Origin: Octopus vulgaris
Taxonomy: Eukaryota
Length of the DNA: 64,000 nucleotides
Direction of reading: 5' to 3'
NCBI GenBank assembly: GCA_951406725.2
Contig: OX597823.1
Location: 72,664,001 to 72,728,000 of the forward strand
Shown: positions 14,433 to 59,959 of the stretch, piece by piece
Position numbering within the stretch: position 1 is the first letter of the stretch
Layout: every line of letters starts with the position of its first letter
Program-made: the position numbers and the translations under genes
The notes under the pieces: generated by a model
The model's database searches: none
Seen by the model: only the letters and a program-made list of their open reading frames with translations
What the model was told of the DNA's origin: nothing

Positions 14433-15260
14433 TAGTCTCATCTATAAATATCCGGACAATTGTCATACTAACGAACCTAAAGCACGCGCTGGCCTTAGAA
14501 TTTTGCTGTGCGCGCACACTATGTTTTAACTTTCTACCTCACTTCACTGCGTGTGATCTTCGCATTGAACATGACAGAGAAAGTTGAGTAAGAGAATCTG
14601 CACCAAATTTTGACTAAATCTTGGCGATACCGGCTCAGACGCCAACGCAAATTTTTCAAAAAATTATCATCGTTAACCACACAATCAAGGAGATCTGAGA
14701 CTGAAAACCGAGTATTGTTTTGGTCATCTGAAAGCAGTTTTGGCACAAACTTAGCAGACACGCGTCTCATACCCAGTTCTTCAGTGATAAGGGCCTGAAC
14801 TGTATCGTAACTAATCTGCATATATTCTGATAACTCACAGATGGTTATTTGACGATTTCCCCTTACAGCTGAAAGCACAACTGAGATGTGTTTCTCAGTT
14901 CTGCTGGTTGCGGGTCTCCCCGAACTTTCCCCAATAGCTACATTTTTTTCAGCCATCTTGGAAGCGCCTGAACCACTCTTACAGTTGTGTGCGACTTTTA
15001 CACTCCTCCCCATAAATATTCTGCAATTTTGCGTCGTCCTCTTAACAGGTATCACCATGAAAACTTTCTTTGTCATAGTCAATGCGACGATCAGACGCTA
15101 CATACCTTTTTTTCAAGCAGTACTGTAAGTGAGCTAGAACGTTAAATCTTATTGCACATGGACAGAAGAGTTCATTGTCAATCTTTCCTAGCGGGTTCAC
15201 TCTGCGTACTTTAGCGTCGTTACTATGACAACAGTCCGGATACTTGTTGATCATATCTCG
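14433..15260 (-). mobile_element. Second copy of the same double-5'-end mariner derivative
   Basis: ORF 14534-15082 contains SGRPATSRT...ELGMRRVSAKFVPKLL; TATCCGGAA/C-containing TIR remnants at both ends; same junction as copy 1. Confidence 0.85.
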
Positions 15261-20759: not shown

Positions 20760-21480
20760 GAAAAAAAAGTCAAGATAGAAAATGCTAAAATAATTTTATA
20801 AAAAACATTTCAGTAACGGTTTCAGTCATTGAGACTTTTTCAACTGTAACAATTAAATAATTAAATTTAGAAAAATTAGAAGAAAAGTTTTTTTTAAAGA
20901 ATATTTGTATAACGTTCAAATACAAGTGGCATTTTCCTTGTTTCTGCCTGTCTCTGTCTCTCTTCTTTACTTTTGTAGGTTCGAGGTCGTTGTGAATTTT
21001 TGGTAGGGAAGAAGAAGAAGAAGAAGAAGAAGAAGAAGAAGAAGAAGAAGAAAAAAAAAAAAGAAAGAGAAGGGAGAATAAGAATGAATGTAGGTAGCGT
21101 GAAAGTAGTGAGGTGGTAAATGACATAAAATTGGTACGTTATGGATTACAGCAGTGAGTGGGACTGTTTCTAATGAATTCCTGGGAATCTCTTGAGTGCA
21201 TCATTTTTAATATTTGCGTATGTATTTGTGTTATTCTAAGGCCGTGAATAATATGGCGTTTGTCGTAGACGCGTACAGGAGGAGCCTGAATTTTGTAATA
21301 AAGAGAGTTTCTTTACTAATTCGTTGGCTCCAGGTTGTATCGTCCCTGAATTGGTAGAGGGGAAAAATTTTGAAACTTGGATTTTTGTCGTTGGCGCAAA
21401 TGTCTATGTTGGCTGAATGCTATTTTATCTGTTTTGGGGAATTTTTATCTGGGATCTGTGCAGGTAGATTATTTCTTGTT
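20760..21480 (-). mobile_element. Penelope-like element 3' end: GIY-YIG C-terminal relic, (CTT)n, terminal repeat
   Basis: Minus strand, frameshifted: LHRSQIKFPK...SQH.DICANDKNPSFKI FPLYQFRDDTTWSQRISKETLFITKFRLLL, matching the PLE endonuclease C-terminal pattern. Confidence 0.7.
20811..20846 (-). ncRNA. Minimal hammerhead-like motif with U3-A8 core at the 3' end of a Penelope-like element
   Basis: Minus strand CAG-TTGAAAA-AGTC(TCAAT)GACT-GAAA-CCGT-TA-CTG; lies downstream of a GIY-YIG relic. Confidence 0.55.
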
Positions 21481-24406
21481 TGGCCTATGTATTCAATACT
21501 GTTCCAAGAACACACACCATAAATCACATCAGGGCACCCCGCAACAACAAGGATCAACTACATAACGGCTACCATCCCAACCACCGCAATCATTTTTTAG
21601 ACTCAATACGCAAACACAGAGACACAAGATATCACCAAACAGGCAGGAGGAACCAAAAGTGATAAAAATTATCAATCTAACTCAATGCAGATTTATGCAA
21701 GAAACGTTTATTTAGCTGTTATTTTTAGCACATCTCACAACTCCCTCAATAACAAAAATAAACGAGTAAACAAGTAGTTTTAAGTATTCAATATGCATAT
21801 AATGCAGATGCGATGAACAACACGTTACAAATTAAATATTAAAAAAAAAAACATTTTGTTGACCAGTTCATAAATTCTCATGCTCAATTGTCGACAGGTA
21901 AAACAAGTGGTTTCAAAATATTTATGAACACGTGTTTTCTCGCAGACAAAAGACTCCTCATGTTCTGCTTGTTACTATGGAAACAAGCATGAATGTGTCT
22001 GTGGCTTACGATTGGCTAAAATGACTGAAATTGTTAAACTTTTATTGCTAATTATTTATTTATTCATTTATAGTGAAAATGATTTTCACGTCATTCATTA
22101 GCCAATAAAAGTTTACCATTACACTGAATATGATATCATTTCGAACAGAATTGATGCTGGCATCCAAACGAACTAGATCCCAAATCTCTCTACTTGATGG
22201 CAATACTATTCAACCGTGATTAGAGAATAATAGCTTACGGTTAATGGCTAGAAACTGATGACCTAGTTCTGTATCAATGTCACATTGACCACGTTCCATT
22301 CTCTTATATTTTCTTCCTTTTCGTTATCAATTGATTTGCTTTGGTCTTGACAAAGATATCAATGTGAACGTGGTTCGCTCCATTTTCAGTCTATTAATTG
22401 ATCGACATCGATTGATAAAATTGGACCATGAGCGCACCCAAATTTATATCTGAAATCGTTGTAAGCTTGTAACAAAAAACAACCTATTATTTTCGTCTAT
22501 TTTATGTATCATCTTGTAAGAAAATGCCATCCCGGATATACGAATATAACTGGTGATGGACTTCGACATCAGCTTTTCACATCGATTTACCTGCAGTATG
22601 ATAGGGATTACAACATATTTTTGTTAGCCTGGCGTGTTTTTATCGGCAGAGCGATGGTTCAGACTCACTTATTAGTCCCCTTTTGAAAATGTTATACACA
22701 ACACACACGCACACGCACATACAAATACACACACATATATATATGTATCATCTTTTGTGCATGCTTAATAACTTAAGATGACGTTGATGGTGTCTAATGT
22801 CAGATGGTTAAATTATAATTTTCTGCCTCCCATAAACTTATAAACGTATATATAGATGACATTATGCTTCAGTTATGTAATTCCGTTTGTTCCCTCCGCA
22901 CTTCTCAATAACAGTATGGATAGCCTATACCTCCGATCTATTTGAACCTATCGACATCAAATTGTAATTGAGATGGAGGTTAATGTCTCTATGATAGCAC
23001 GTTAGATTTTCAGTATATGTTAACCTTAGATCGTTTAAAACTAAGTAATGTAATCCAGAAACATTATTTATTGGGGGAAAAAAAATTACAATAAACGTCT
23101 ATGCTATAGAATTGCGCATCTCAATGATACCTTTTCCCCATCTGGTTTACACATCGCTGTGGATTCTTTGAGCTGTTAATAAGCTATCTTAAATCTATAA
23201 TAATTGCAAAACAAGTTATGTTTATTTCTAAACTTCCAATATTTCTAACGATAATTTCATAAAAATACAGCGGTTATTCATTTCAATCTATTTATTCCTC
23301 CTTATTGAAAGTCTATATTTAACGTGTAAATCTATAAGTCATCAGAAACGTGGAAGTATTAAGTCTAACAATAAGCATTATTCTAACTATATTAGTAAGT
23401 AATAGTATGAAAAGTAACTTATTTTTAATCTAAATACTGCTAGGCGCCTGGCTGACATGAAAAGATAATAATGTAAGCGACTACAACACTTGTAATCCAT
23501 ACTACTACCATTATTATCGCATATGAAGAGACACAGGCATCACCTACTAGACATCGCAGCCAAATACCTTGCAAATAACTCGTTGCTCTCATAAAGGATA
23601 CATGTAACAGTATTGTCATGTATATATAGCAAAAATGTAAAGCCCAATCATTATGTCTGGAATACCTTCGTTCTTACATCTCAACCATCAGGGTTGACAT
23701 GGAACTAAATGAGAATAATAGTTTGGAGACCTAAAAGTTTGATTTTTTTCTTTTTCGTATGAAACTTCAAAATTTTATTTACTTGTTACCAAAGGAACCT
23801 ACAATGATTCGCTGGGATTCAGCATGTTAATTAATTCACTGATATGCCAATCTTAATAAAATTACTTGGGTTTAACATATAGCTTTATGTCCTAATGTTC
23901 GCCTTTTCAGTACTATGTTTCATAAGTAGTAACAAGAGGAGCTGCCATTCAATCCTTATCACTTCCTTTTTCGTTAGTGTAGAAAAAAATTATTTTAAAT
24001 TACATTTTGTATCCGTTATTGACTCGCTAGATCTCTGACAAAAGTCGTAATCACTCTTTAATTGCTTGTATACTCTAAGAATACTAGCATATATACTCTC
24101 TTAAATCTGGTAACGATTATTTTAATGTAATAAGTTCAAAGGATTAATTTTCTAACATATTTATCTGATGTTCATCCTGATGACATAGTTTTGGCAAAAT
24201 ATATAGTGGTGTTAGCGGTGGCACGAAATATCAGTGGATATAATTATTCACTATTTTTTACATCGGAGGGAACGTATTCCGTCTTCAATGTGGCGGTATG
24301 ACGAGACCCAAAAAGTTGATATATAAAATCTATGTATCCAAAAAGGATACATAAATAGGTATATAAATTATATATATAAGTATATATATGTATATATATA
24401 TATATT

Positions 24407-24441
<35 letters not shown>

Positions 24442-24469
24442 GTATATGCACGTATGTATATATCTATAT

Positions 24470-25570
24470 ATTACTGTGTTTGTGGACAGTCATTATGTTT
24501 TATTGCCTTAATATTTAACACACTCACCGGTTCGATTTCCACTCATTTACTTATATATATATACTTATATATATATACTCTTTTCAATTGTCATTCCCTC
24601 TTCTCCCTTACTCTCTTTCTCTCTTCTCTATTTCTCTCTGCTCCCTCACTCTCCTTCTCTCCTCTCCGCCTCCCTCATCCTTCTTCCCACCCAACTCTCC
24701 TCTCTTGCCCCAACTCCTACTTCTCTTCACTTCTACTCTCTTTCCCTCTTCTCTCTTACTCTCTTTCTCTCTTCCCCCTACTCTCTTTCTCTATTCCCCC
24801 TACTCTCTTTCTCTCTTTCTTTTCCCTCTTTCCCTCTTCCCTCTTCCTCTCTTCCTCTCTTCTCTCTACCTCTCTGCTCTCTTACTCTCTTTCTCTCTTC
24901 TGTCCTCCTCTATTTCCTCACATACCCACCTTCTCCTCCACCCATAAACCCACCCACCCCTACACATCCCAACTCCACCTTCCCTATCCTTCCCATCCCA
25001 TCCCCCATACTATCCGACGCCCCTCCCCCACATACCCCACACTCTGCCTACCCACAAACCCCAACTCTACTCCAACCCACAGTCGAACCCACACCCCACC
25101 TGTGCTTTCCCCACTCTCACCTCTCCCACCTCCCAACAACATCACACCACACCACACTACACCATACAACATTACACATCACATCACAACACACCACCTA
25201 CACACCCCACATCTTCACACCTATACATACATACACGCACACGTCCAGACCACCAGCCCTCTTTCACGCGCACATACATACTCTCTTATACATACACGCG
25301 CCTTTGTGTTGGGGGTCATCTTTACCTTGTTATCTCCCCTATTTTCCTCCTCGTGTTTGAACCTTCTGTCCGGCACTAGTCATCATGATAGATCGTTAGC
25401 CACTATACATCCTGTTTTTCTCTCCTTGTTTTTTCTGTGTCCCTTTCTGTAGAAGAGTGTAGGCTCGAAACGTAAAAGACTTTTTCTATTCCTGAGCGTT
25501 ATACTAATATATCTGTTTGTTTTGTACACCACCTGTCTTCGTCTTTTGCTTTTACGTAAACTCTCCCTAT
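24470..25570 (+). mobile_element. Probable Penelope-like terminal repeat with pyrimidine-rich low-complexity interior
   Basis: The 3' part (CATGATAGATCGTTAGCCACTA...GGCTCGAAACG...ACACCACCTGTCTTCG) recurs at 19690-19880 (+) and 29715-29940 (-). The 354-aa ORF is a low-complexity artefact. Confidence 0.55.
25443..25478 (+). ncRNA. Minimal hammerhead-like motif, CUGUNGA core (family copy 1)
   Basis: CTTT-CTGTAGA-A-GAGT(GTAG)GCTC-GAAACGTA-AAAG. Confidence 0.55.
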
Positions 25571-44186: not shown

Positions 44187-45045
44187 TAACTGTGAATATG
44201 ATAACTTAGAATTTATTTCTAATTAATCTAATGAATTTGCATAAAGCTTTTAAATGTACATGCCATATGAATGATTAATTTATTCAAGTCAAAATATCTT
44301 TTTAATACGGGGACATCATACTTCATTAAATCTATAAATTATTCATATATTATTAGGTTTAACAGTTGCAATTTATTGTTAAAAGCTATTTAAGTGCCAA
44401 AGCTTTAAGTAGACAACCATAAATGCATCGCTAAATAAAAGTATTCATTTAAATTTACGATAGTGAAAATTAAATAACTTTTGTGTAACATTTTTCGTAT
44501 AGCATTGCTTGAAAATGACTTCAAAGCATAGTAATATAATTTATGCAATATAATAAAAATGTCTGCTAAAATAGGTATTCAGAAACTTAAATATGCTTTG
44601 AAGAACATTAGAATACGAGAATTGTGAATTTGTTTCCGTGATTTAAAACTTGGACTAGTTATAATTAGACGATTTTGAACTATTCTTGCCCTGCTCTCTT
44701 TTTCACATTGTCACATCTGTTTAGTTTGTTTTCCATCATGCTCAAGTGAATAGAACGACTCCGGAAAACTCAAGCCGTCTTGAGTCACTGGATTTACCGT
44801 AAACTATCAATACAAATGCTGTTTATTGTACATCAACTTCTCCTAACTGCATGACGATGGTTTATACCTACTGGACGGTGAAGTTATATTCTCCACTGTA
44901 TCCGGAAGTATGAGCAACAGTAGTTTCTCTAACCTGTTATTGTTGTTCTTCACCTCCTTTCACTCTTTCATGGTGGGATTTCTTTTCTGTACGACAATTA
45001 TTATATTATTTAATCTCAGAATGAGATTGAAACAGTAATCGCTTG

Positions 45046-45327
45046 ATAATGTAAAGTATAGAAGCCATCTTATCATGGCTAACCACATTGGGGAGGGGGT
45101 TGTTACTGTAGCTTTATAGCCCCAAGAGATCTTCGTCTCTAGCTGGCTCTAAACACAATATCTGTGTCTTTGGAAGGGATGGCCTCCCTTTGCAAATACT
45201 CCAAAGACACAGATATTGTGTTTAGAGCCAGCTAGAGACGAAGATTCTTGGGGCTATAAAGCTACAGTAACAACCCCCTCCCCAATGTGGTTAGCCATGA
45301 TAAGATGGCTTCTATACTTTACATTAT
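45046..45327. repeat. Near-perfect fold-back: 129/128-bp arms, 25-nt loop; homologous to the 58.4-58.9 kb repeat
   Basis: 45046-45174 is the reverse complement of 45200-45327 except for one 1-nt indel. Shares TCCCTTTGCAAATACT, AAGCTACAGTA, GGTTAGCCA and TATACTT with the 58.7-kb copy. Confidence 0.95.
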
Positions 45328-57006: not shown

Positions 57007-58392
57007 GCAACAACAACAACAACAACAACTTGAAGAAGAAGAATTGCGCGATGCGATTTGTAATAATGATTGATTCTTTTTATTGAACGGATTGAACGAT
57101 ATTTCGACAGATTGTGTGTCTTCCTCCATGTCAAAATGTAAAATTAGAAAAATAAATGCCAAAAAAGAAAAGCGAGAAAGAAACGCAGAAACACAGGAAT
57201 TGAAAATATGTACGAGGAAATCCTGCATCCGCTTTCACTTTTTCAGATCTGGTAACAAGGAAAGAGAAAAAAGAAGACAAGAAAGAGACTACTTTGTCAG
57301 TTTTGTGTAAATGCGATGACAATCACATCATTTTATTCATTCCTTCAGCGCGTGTCTTATGCAGTTCACAAATATATTTCTCCTCATGCATTTGGAGTAC
57401 TGAGAATGTAGTAGAGTCAGGATATATTCTGGAACTGTGCACTTTCAGGTGTTCCTAAGAAGTATAACCGTTCAATATGAAATGTTCAGCAAGTTCCGTT
57501 GAACTAATGCTATTGGCGAACATTACACATCAAAAGCCTGTAGAGTATGGGCCATAAGCTAACCGTCCCAATATGAATTATATCTCTGTTACTGCACTAC
57601 GCAGCCGTCACTTAAACCCATCGAACAACCTCTGTGTGCTCGTGTTTCAGCAACGTCTCCTTTATTCTGATAACACATTTTTGTTTTTCCGGCCGATGAA
57701 ATGTTTGAGAGGCTAATCTAATTGTTCTCTTTAGTTTGAATTCACTACAAGCTGACGATGGATACTAATTTGATCTGGAAAGATTTCCGCACCGGGAGGA
57801 CAAGAAATGATACTAATAACCTACCATATAACCATTTGTTGTCTATAGGAAAATTGAAATTATGTGCAAAAGTCGAAACATCCAATTTCTTTGTTGTAGA
57901 TATTCCGTATGAAAGAATGTGTCGAAAAGATAGGTACCTCTTAAATGCTTCCCCATAAATAATGATGAATGGTTTTAATAAAATATCTCAATAGACACAT
58001 AACTAGCAATAACTAGGCAATAACGAATTGAGTAAGAGACTAGTTTCTCCGGAAAAAAGAGAAAACCTATTTGGGAAAACCTTGTTCAACCTCAGCAAAA
58101 ATAATTTTCGTTATAAAGTGAAATGTCTAGGATTCAGTTTTCTCGAAGGAATAAAGAGAGGTAAGAAGTTATTTGTAATATTGGCAGAAGTTTAAGATCA
58201 AAATTTGTCCGTGACTAAGGGGAAATGATATTATGGTCCAAATAAGAAGTGTCGTCTTTGTGAAACCACTGTAGATGATTATAACACGTATAATCTGCGT
58301 CTTATCGTAAAAGATATAAGACGAAATAAATCTGACTTCTACCTTACATTTGTGTTACCAGTTATGAGATAAGTGCAGCATATCTTTTCTTC

Positions 58393-58870
58393 AAAATACT
58401 GATAGGGCACAAGAAGTGTGTTAGTAACCAGGTGGAGATGTCTTCCTGGGGCTACAAGCTACAGTAGCATCAACCCTTAAGGGTTAACCACATTTAAGTG
58501 GCAAATATACTTCACGATGTCGTGCAGCTACTGTTTATACCACGCTCAGAGATTTATTATTCCTTGTTTCCACTTTTTCGACACTAGTGACTTTCGTCAC
58601 TGGAAAAAAGTTTATACATATTTGGATTGAGAACCCATCGCCAACCGGTGGTTGTCACACGTTGATGACGGGTCAATATTCAGAAACTCTGGTCCGTGTG
58701 TATCTCGTCAGGCTGGAGATGGGAAAGATGACTTCCCTTTGCAAATACTGATAGGGCAGAGAAAGTGTGTCAAAAGCCTGCTGGAGGAGATGTCTTTTTA
58801 GGGTTACAAGCTACAGTAGCATCAACCGTTAAGGGTTAGCCACATTTAGGAGGCAAATATACTTCACAAA
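58393..58870 (+). mobile_element. Partial tandem repeat (~1.35 units, period ~349 bp) carrying a hammerhead; retrozyme-like
   Basis: ATACTGATAGGGCA...ACAAGCTACAGTAGCATCAACC...GGCAAATATACTTCAC recurs at 58396 and 58745. The unit contains several hairpins and one hammerhead motif and has no ORF. Confidence 0.65.
58656..58700 (+). ncRNA. Minimal type-I hammerhead ribozyme motif inside a ~349-bp tandem repeat unit
   Basis: CACACG-TTGATGA-CGGGT(CAAT)ATTCA-GAAAC-TCTG-GTC-CGTGTG. Stem I is a perfect 6 bp, the core has C3>U, stem II is weak, stem III is 2 bp, and the cleavage triplet is GUC. Confidence 0.75.
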
Positions 58871-59959
58871 TACTTTAAAACTTTTTGCTTTTATTTACGC
58901 TAAAACTCGTCAAAAATAGACTTTAATTAGAAATTATTAACATAACTAGTTACGGTTAATAGATAGTTCAAATTATAACTTAATTATTGGTGAAAAAACA
59001 CCCCGCCCTCCATTTGTTTATCATTAGTTAATGCTGAAGGAGTGTATCTTCTAAGAAGAGCTCTGTGAAACGTGATCGTTTAGAGTTAACTACAGTAATA
59101 ATGACAATGATGCTTATGAAGATAGTATTGCATTTGCAAAACGATTAAACAGAAAAATGTAACGCATTAATGGAAGAAAACCAAATATATGACAAGATGA
59201 AATTAAAAAGGCAAAATAAAATGAAATGAAGGAGCATTATAAGCGACAGTGGTAACTGATATTTCTATCACTGCTAAAAGTAGAAAATGGCATATATCTT
59301 AAGCAAGGGAGTTATAAAAGTCAATAGCAATGACATTAATACAAGATACATTATTCAGTTTGAGATTATGAAAATTCATGAAATGCTAAATATAAAATTA
59401 AGAAATATTGAAGAAATTGAGTTATGGGGAAAATTAGACAAACAGAAGCGAAGACATGAGTAATAAATAATACAAATGGCAATAGGGTGCTGTAGAAGCT
59501 AATATAAACAGCGCAGTTACCTGCCATTGTCATAATACTGAACAGGAGAGCTACTTTCAATTAGTTAGCCTTTAGCTAGTGTGGAATATTACAATATCAT
59601 TTTTAAACAAGTAATAAGCTGCATCAACATCTTACTATTATTATTGTCATGTTCTTAGCTTTTGTTACTTGAGAGCATACGTATGAATAGAAATGTAAGC
59701 AAGAACGTTTTAACTGTTCATATTTTTTCTGTAGGATAATTGACAGGATGAAGTGTTGCAAATTTTGTTGGAGTTACTTTATGTAGTGGCTTATTAAATA
59801 AAATCTTTTGTTGAAAATCAGAAACAAATTAACAGAGAGTACGTTTGAATGAAGAACTTAACAGAAGAAATTGCTGTATAACAACCGAGTTAAATGAGAT
59901 CTGCCAATGGTTATACGTACATATTTCCTGTACCTCAAAAATGTGATTCAATATTTGCT

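Follow-up and report, generated by a model that had tools for sequence, protein, structure and literature searches.

The window analysed here, a stretch of 64,000 nucleotides of Octopus vulgaris DNA, contains a 474-bp insertion of a repeat that we designate RZ1, with one hammerhead-like motif inside it. The insertion stops at site S (3´ offset -2), one of two positions, S and T, at which copies of the family preferentially terminate. The relevant features, in window coordinates, are the following.

58394..58867, + strand: RZ1 insertion, 1.35 units of a 352-bp retrozyme-like repeat, 5´-truncated, 3´ end at site S
58394..58515, + strand: partial first unit, 5´-truncated, from the truncation point to site S
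58559..58564, + strand: internal position of site T, which lies 42-47 nt beyond S; 24 of the 71 mapped family copies end here (offset class +36 to +56)
58586..58602, + strand: conserved hairpin of the unit, with an A-T to T-A double change in the pentamer lineage (by eye)
58648..58706, + strand: type I hammerhead, whole
58648-58652/58702-58706, + strand: outer stem I
58656-58661/58695-58700, + strand: stem I
58662-58668, + strand: hammerhead core, C3>U in the window copy
58670-58673/58678-58681, + strand: stem II, two G-C pairs changed to G.U in the window copy
58683-58686, + strand: GAAA of the hammerhead
58686-58693, + strand: helix III octamer, its palindrome broken in the window copy
after C58694, + strand: predicted cleavage site
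58743..58867, + strand: matching part of the next unit, where the insertion terminates at site S
58868..58874, also 58394-58400, + strand: AAATACT, which may represent target duplication (7 bp) or microhomology at the 5´ end; the element itself has the sequence of the left copy, so the two are inseparable
45012..45310, no strand assigned: fragment of a third related family, about 75% identical to RZ1 and RZ2; it lacks the hammerhead part and has two arms in head-to-head orientation, of which one ends near S and the other continues past S towards T

The initial annotation had pointed to a recurring block, and this block is clearly detectable: 58394-58515 is found again at 58743-58867 with 84% identity over 125 columns (E 3e-33). 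The unit length of 349 bp given there applies to the 5´ part of the block; at its 3´ part the spacing is 352, which is also the period of the family, the window copy having suffered small deletions. The hammerhead-like motif at 58656-58700 is present as described. It is one of two matches in a loose motif scan of both strands of the whole window, and the one of the two with six of six stem I pairs. Its designation as a "minimal" hammerhead had to be abandoned, since the ribozyme is of canonical type I and possesses a short palindromic helix III. The additional hairpins listed for the unit are all in place; one of them (CAACC/GGTTG) shares bases with the outer part of stem I, and the two structures compete. 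The unit was said to lack an open reading frame, and the longest frame in RZ1, on both strands and read round the circle, is 28-32 aa (28-58 aa across the families). None of 100 shuffles folds as well as the 353-nt unit of the window (z -2.6); a 101-nt stretch around the hammerhead motif alone folds no better than shuffles (z +0.7). Just upstream of the insertion, at 58200-58370, there is a short frame with a CRLC...ET motif, suggestive of the zinc knuckle found at the C terminus of LINE proteins.

Compared with the family majority, the window copy is 91% identical, with 31 substitutions and 12 gap columns. The 12-nt core is intact in 20 of the 30 best RZ1 matches. C3 is kept in 29 of these 30, and among them the C3>U change noticed earlier is private to the window copy; it does not by itself mark a dead lineage, because the same change is fixed in the younger sister family RZ2. 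The self-duplex of helix III is worth -1.2 kcal/mol in the window copy versus -7 to -15 in others. Because of C3>U, the weakened stem II, the broken helix III palindrome and the presence of a single ribozyme, the window copy is probably inactive and can be viewed as an ordinary decayed insertion.

Search of the 2.8-Gb, 227-contig assembly, in which the window belongs to contig C10, placed this copy in a large family. The RZ1 unit gave 91 matches from the 40 scored of 3592 candidates, and the exact 34-nt intact core was found in 78 genomic copies, versus none for a control pattern; RZ1 copies are scattered over most of the large contigs. The wider family was seen at two places in 427 kb of overlapping loci fetched around Penelope-like elements (PLEs), and at two more within the 64 kb of the window, which suggests, as a rough figure, thousands to about ten thousand copies. 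As the initial annotation had anticipated, the family majority restores CUGAUGA, paired stem II and stem I, and tandem arrays display the 352 period. RZ1 has a GC content of 0.46 and is 60% paired; folded as circles, the RZ1 majority reaches z -4.0 and RZ2 z -4.5. RZ2 itself is a sister family with a 354-bp unit, 70% identical to RZ1, represented by 29 units with 93-99% identity to their majority, and it is younger than RZ1. Its example loci are:

L209:2070-2661 (- strand) and L215-L234: RZ2 copies whose inverted arms are multimeric and whose U3.G8 core is fixed

One further locus (L237, G000:C1:94321300-94325800) carries a tandem duplication of about 1.39 kb, near 100% identical, which includes an RZ2 fragment together with a LINE-like reverse transcriptase (RT) piece.

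The RZ1 hammerhead consists of a 6-bp stem I followed by an internal loop and a 5-bp outer stem, a stem II of 4 bp above a C.A mismatch, and a helix III of 2 bp closed by a tetraloop. The four common forms of the helix III octamer, ACUCGGGU, ACCCGGGU, ACUCGAGU and ACUAUAGU, are all self-complementary, a design that PMC4209133 (seen in part) connects with dimeric cleavage by canonical type I ribozymes. According to the same portion of that paper, "minimal" motifs are another type, and pseudo-LTRs (pLTRs) of PLEs bear type I hammerheads; the minimal hammerhead of PLEs has helix III absent or reduced, a long helix II and a short helix I. RZ1 differs from it by its 6-bp helix I with the outer stem, 4-bp helix II and 2-bp helix III with a palindromic loop.

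Conservation is higher in the core columns than in the non-CpG columns of the unit (0.969 vs 0.909, p 0.0006, or p 0.005 when subfamily-variable columns are left out), although the copies are related and these p values thus do not come from independent draws. Between RZ1 and RZ2, both sides of pairs are changed in stem I, the outer stem, stem II and the palindrome. In 22 distinct RZ1 and RZ2 rows, 89% of cells are paired, compared with 16-54% in slid controls, and changes on both sides occur in 26 cells versus 9.9 in shuffles. Measures that count pairs and types did not exceed the shuffles (297 and 319 of 500), and the covariation mostly represents one RZ1-versus-RZ2 event per pair. The hammerhead models proposed as a check gave a negative answer: Rfam has no hammerhead match on the window region or on a lone copy with an intact core, and none among the matches listed for four loci (150 of 190). 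For this reason, the identification rests on the core motif, the family comparison and covariation. When the isolated motif was folded, the minimum-energy structure differed from the hammerhead fold in all five copies tested.

Not all spreading copies have the consensus core. When Y is allowed at positions 3 and 4 and R at position 8, exact RZ1 matches rise from 78 to 150; a hand count of the first 100 of them gives 58 CUGAUGA, 37 CCGAUGA, 3 UUGAUGA, 1 UCGAUGA and 1 CUGAUAA. The first 100 of 219 RZ2 cores comprise 97 UUGACGA, 2 UUGACAA and 1 CUGACGA, the C3>U change of RZ2 resulting in a U3.G8 wobble. The CCGAUGA (U4>C) subfamily of RZ1 is dispersed and also forms a 9-mer array. Two array-forming lineages have spread with non-consensus cores, U4>C within RZ1 and C3>U in RZ2. 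A U3...G8 core with a 2-nt insertion, from a halophilic source, is described in the part of PMC7151607 available to us, and the literature yielded no rate for U3.G8 without the insertion. Descriptor pipelines that demand a consensus core would presumably miss both RZ2 and the following U4>C arrays.

L238:700-3847, contig C2: 9-mer array of the U4>C subfamily, exact 352 period, ends at S
L142:2053-3821, contig C25: 5-mer array of the U4>C subfamily, exact 352 period, ends at S

Units differ by 3-13 bases within the 5-mer, by 1-6 within the 9-mer and by about 30 between the arrays; this homogeneity suggests that the U4C lineage is younger than the remaining RZ1. In the 5-mer there is a dimer-level pattern (unit 1 resembles 3, unit 2 resembles 4), which is not predicted by a single monomeric circle. 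Units belonging to the same RZ2 insertion share private variants more often than expected (2.9 vs 0.5, 0 of 5000 permutations), often across both arms; L227, where the two arms share no variant, is an exception. Such sharing fits repeated copying of one template, but it would likewise follow from local expansion, from gene conversion or from a linear transcript of several units. In contigs of four presumed-RNA sequencing runs (coded organisms A-D), depth lies on the element and not on the flanks, a picture that a repeat in a DNA run could also produce and that carries no information on strand, circles or expression. All depth in these runs has C at the C3 position.

The most informative property of the family is the way its copies end. 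We mapped ends at 71 loci chosen by the intact core alone (72 of the 78 places, with six left out). Their 3´ ends fall at S in 35 cases, at T in 24 and elsewhere in 12, so that 59 of 71 are fixed, with the reservation that the S and T classes were defined after the data had been seen; among the 30 best RZ1 matches the corresponding numbers are 18, 5 and 7. Site S in RZ1 is located in the loop of a small predicted hairpin. The 5´ ends are scattered, the copies being 5´-truncated. Directly after the fixed ends, TATA or ATAT follows in 39 of 59 cases (background 0.11). Target duplications, 5 of 39 with a permutation mean of 1.4 and maximum of 5, are not clearly enriched. Copies longer than one unit (24 of 71) continue into the same unit again. 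A head-to-head inverted 5´ arm is present in 26 of 71 loci. Where both arms end at S or T, 13 of 14 insertions have one arm at each site (P 6e-4, assuming independent draws and with post hoc classes); the other 12 of 26 have at least one arm ending away from S and T. At 15 RZ2 loci, scored by eye with a segmental twin counted once, six pairs of arms are S/T and one is T/T.

The paired S/T ends correspond to the "tail" signature of Penelope elements. In the available part of PMC11167929, both strands of AT-rich DNA are cut by a PLE protein, which starts reverse transcription at two internal sites; the distance between these sites gives the tail, a feature termed "unique to PLEs". Similarly, PMC3846280 reports the tail on one of two inverted ends, and 10.1101/2021.04.23.441226 inverted insertions with a tail at one end (both sources in part). 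In RZ copies, the paired ends are a footprint that PLE-type two-site priming on a retrozyme has left directly in the genome, and they mark the RNA segment to which a PLE protein should bind.

At least two young PLE families, both with long RT-GIY-YIG frames, are present in the genome and were compared with the retrozymes as candidate partners.

L091:2628-6809: P1, young Neptune-like PLE, 1106-codon frame with RT, cysteine linker and GIY-YIG-like motif
L203:1651-6168: P2, young abundant PLE, 784-codon frames with RT and GIY-YIG, 174-bp pLTR and 34-bp tail

Six P1 copies are 95-98% alike. The P1 pLTR has a minimal hammerhead-like motif with A6 mostly changed to U (CUGAUGA in 1 of 19 motifs), and P2 has a minimal hammerhead-like motif with a U3-A8 covariant core. 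Both P1 and P2 terminate in TA repeats. They share no sequence with RZ1 according to blastn, neither has ends matching the retrozymes, and local alignment detects no similarity of their pLTRs to RZ1 or RZ2 (p 0.14-0.74). Matches to PLE proteins flank only a few RZ loci. P2 pieces also occur in the window at 21258-21685. Long frames at 24367-25452 and 14534-15097 show likeness to the low-complexity 3´ region of P1, and we take a mariner-type transposase fragment to be among their likenesses as well.

We believe that the most probable interpretation, and one in which we place considerable confidence, is the following: the window copy is a decayed, 5´-truncated copy of a non-coding 352-bp hammerhead repeat, probably a non-LTR retrozyme whose RNA served as template for insertion by the RT-endonuclease of a PLE. 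What we observe in favor of it is the family itself, the hammerhead anatomy with covariation, fixed paired ends, TA targets, exact-period arrays and the lack of an ORF. The view of the initial annotation, a decayed insertion of a non-LTR retrozyme family, gains support from the family core, the stems, the 352-period multimers and the absence of a joined coding element.

A possible sequence of events would begin with transcription of a tandem source. Type I hammerheads would cleave the multimer into single units, probably acting as dimers held together through self-complementary helix III, and ligation of the units would yield circles. TA-rich DNA would then be nicked by a PLE protein, and cDNA synthesis would be primed internally at S or T, which lie about 175 and 220 nt beyond the cleavage site. 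Read-through of the unit junction would generate 5´-truncated copies longer than one unit. If synthesis were primed from each strand, at S in one case and at T in the other, head-to-head inverted insertions would result.

Three other explanations have to be considered. The first of them accepts mobilization by PLEs and dispenses with the circle: a non-autonomous element would be copied from a linear multimeric transcript, its hammerhead being vestigial or dispensable. Several facts speak for it, namely that hammerhead mutations leave insertion by the anole PLE protein unaffected in vitro (PMC11167929, available part), that in vitro cleavage occurred in only 1 of 9 Xenopus retrozyme dimers (10.64898/2026.07.22.740005, available part), that two spreading lineages have non-consensus cores, and that the pentamer has its dimer-level pattern. 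However, families diverged by 30% keep their helices and the helix III palindrome by compensatory change and have one core position altered per lineage, which does not resemble the decay of an unused motif; moreover, U4C is a known variant, slow in vitro yet sufficient for a viroid (PMC3088659, available part). On balance, we find this explanation improbable.

A second explanation, to which we give a small chance, is that the repeat is an orphaned pseudo-LTR, that is, truncated 3´ ends of an undetected autonomous PLE with no separate RNA-circle parasite. Every end signature is that of PLE termini, type I hammerheads occur in PLE pseudo-LTRs (PMC4209133, as cited above), and the comparison covered two PLE families. 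Against this, copies extending beyond the unit run into the same unit, and arrays reach five and nine units. The initial annotation had raised the question whether copies are always the terminal repeat of a longer coding element. In the fetched loci, what lies upstream of a monomer is either the same unit or unique flank; flank-sharing profiles of these loci revealed no common upstream sequence, no shared PLE-like ORF joins them, and PLE protein matches are confined to the flanks of few loci. Three same-strand RZ2 pairs, 1.4-3.6 kb apart, were tried as pLTR pairs and rejected, being local duplications without a PLE ORF. Finally, the RZ hammerhead is canonical, in contrast to the minimal-type motifs of both local PLE families. 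The last explanation, a satellite or DNA-level repeat formed by unequal crossing-over or a rolling-circle DNA transposon and containing a hammerhead-like motif by chance, accords with the internal homogeneity of arrays (1-6 differences per 352 bp) and the missing Rfam match, but is very hard to believe given the conserved ribozyme core and helices, and is largely refuted by the end pattern (dispersed copies, fixed 3´ ends, ragged 5´ ends, S/T inverted arms); local expansion may have lengthened single arrays.

If the repeats are retrozymes moved by PLEs, the variant cores invite a further suggestion, which we offer tentatively and regard as rather doubtful. Rolling-circle retrozymes driven by PLEs might be under selection for a slowed ribozyme, two lineages having independently changed one core base with all helices kept, because a slow hammerhead would let the circle survive for repeated copying by the two-site-priming Penelope RT. 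The Discussion of PMC7229834, in its available part, notes that some factor other than self-pairing must block the hammerhead in animal circles. If true, our suggestion would answer how animal retrozyme circles avoid cutting themselves, and would supply natural substrate pairs. The consensus core, U4C and U3.G8 reside in one genome as matched natural ribozymes, so that tuning of the cleavage rate, or the need for cleavage, is directly testable.

By every sequence feature testable here, RZ1 is a non-LTR retrozyme of the kind described in PMC7229834. Short head-to-tail tandem units (range about 170-400 bp) are represented by 352 bp in RZ1 and 354 bp in RZ2; each RZ1 unit has one canonical type I hammerhead, no protein coding in the fetched loci, GC below 50% and a highly self-paired monomer. 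The metazoan retrozymes in the available text of PMC7229834 (350-390 bp repeats of mussel, Rtz_353 of axolotl) share the unit size, GC below 50%, the lack of an ORF, the occurrence as dimers to multimers and the single type I hammerhead per unit. HHR_Amex2 of Rtz_353 even resembles RZ1 in its helix III, which has 2 bp and a tetraloop, and in the mismatch at the foot of stem II. In that work circles were demonstrated, which for RZ are a prediction; RZ also differs in fixing non-consensus cores in two lineages. As for these cores, U4C (in a viroid) and a U3...G8 core are already on record in the available parts of PMC3088659 and PMC7151607; unlike there, both are here family-level states of dispersed animal retroelements, as read from genomic copies. 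The available text of PMC7229834 gives no cephalopod example, and its main text contains neither "tail" nor "truncat" and so describes no S/T pairing. Our literature search found no cephalopod retrozyme and no S/T ends of retrozymes, though supplements and repeat databases may hold an entry; in a published octopus repeat annotation, the word "ribozyme" is absent from the main text.

The mobilizer of animal retrozymes was previously argued from co-occurrence and, in frogs, from pLTR homology. PMC7229834 names PLEs as the likely mobilizer, and 10.64898/2026.07.22.740005, which treats animal retrozymes as non-autonomous PLE derivatives and supports a PLE origin in vertebrates, arrives at the same mobilizer as we do. 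Its evidence, in the available part, is co-occurrence and pLTR homology in Xenopus, with no molluscs and no mention of a tail; ours is insertion anatomy, pLTR homology with P1 or P2 not having been found. Endonuclease-containing (EN+) PLEs, as portrayed in the available parts of the reports on Poseidon PAc (PMC11167929), rotifer Penelope (PMC3846280) and Neptune/Naiad (10.1101/2021.04.23.441226), differ from RZ, which has no ORF, direct head-to-tail units, a canonical instead of a minimal hammerhead and a tail of 42-47 nt rather than 30-40. They resemble it in having two 3´ ends, a tail confined to one arm, an inverted 5´-truncated arm, AT/TA targets and a hammerhead upstream of the priming sites. 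What is new here is the occurrence of fixed paired ends, 5´ truncation, TA-rich targets and inverted arms on a retrozyme.
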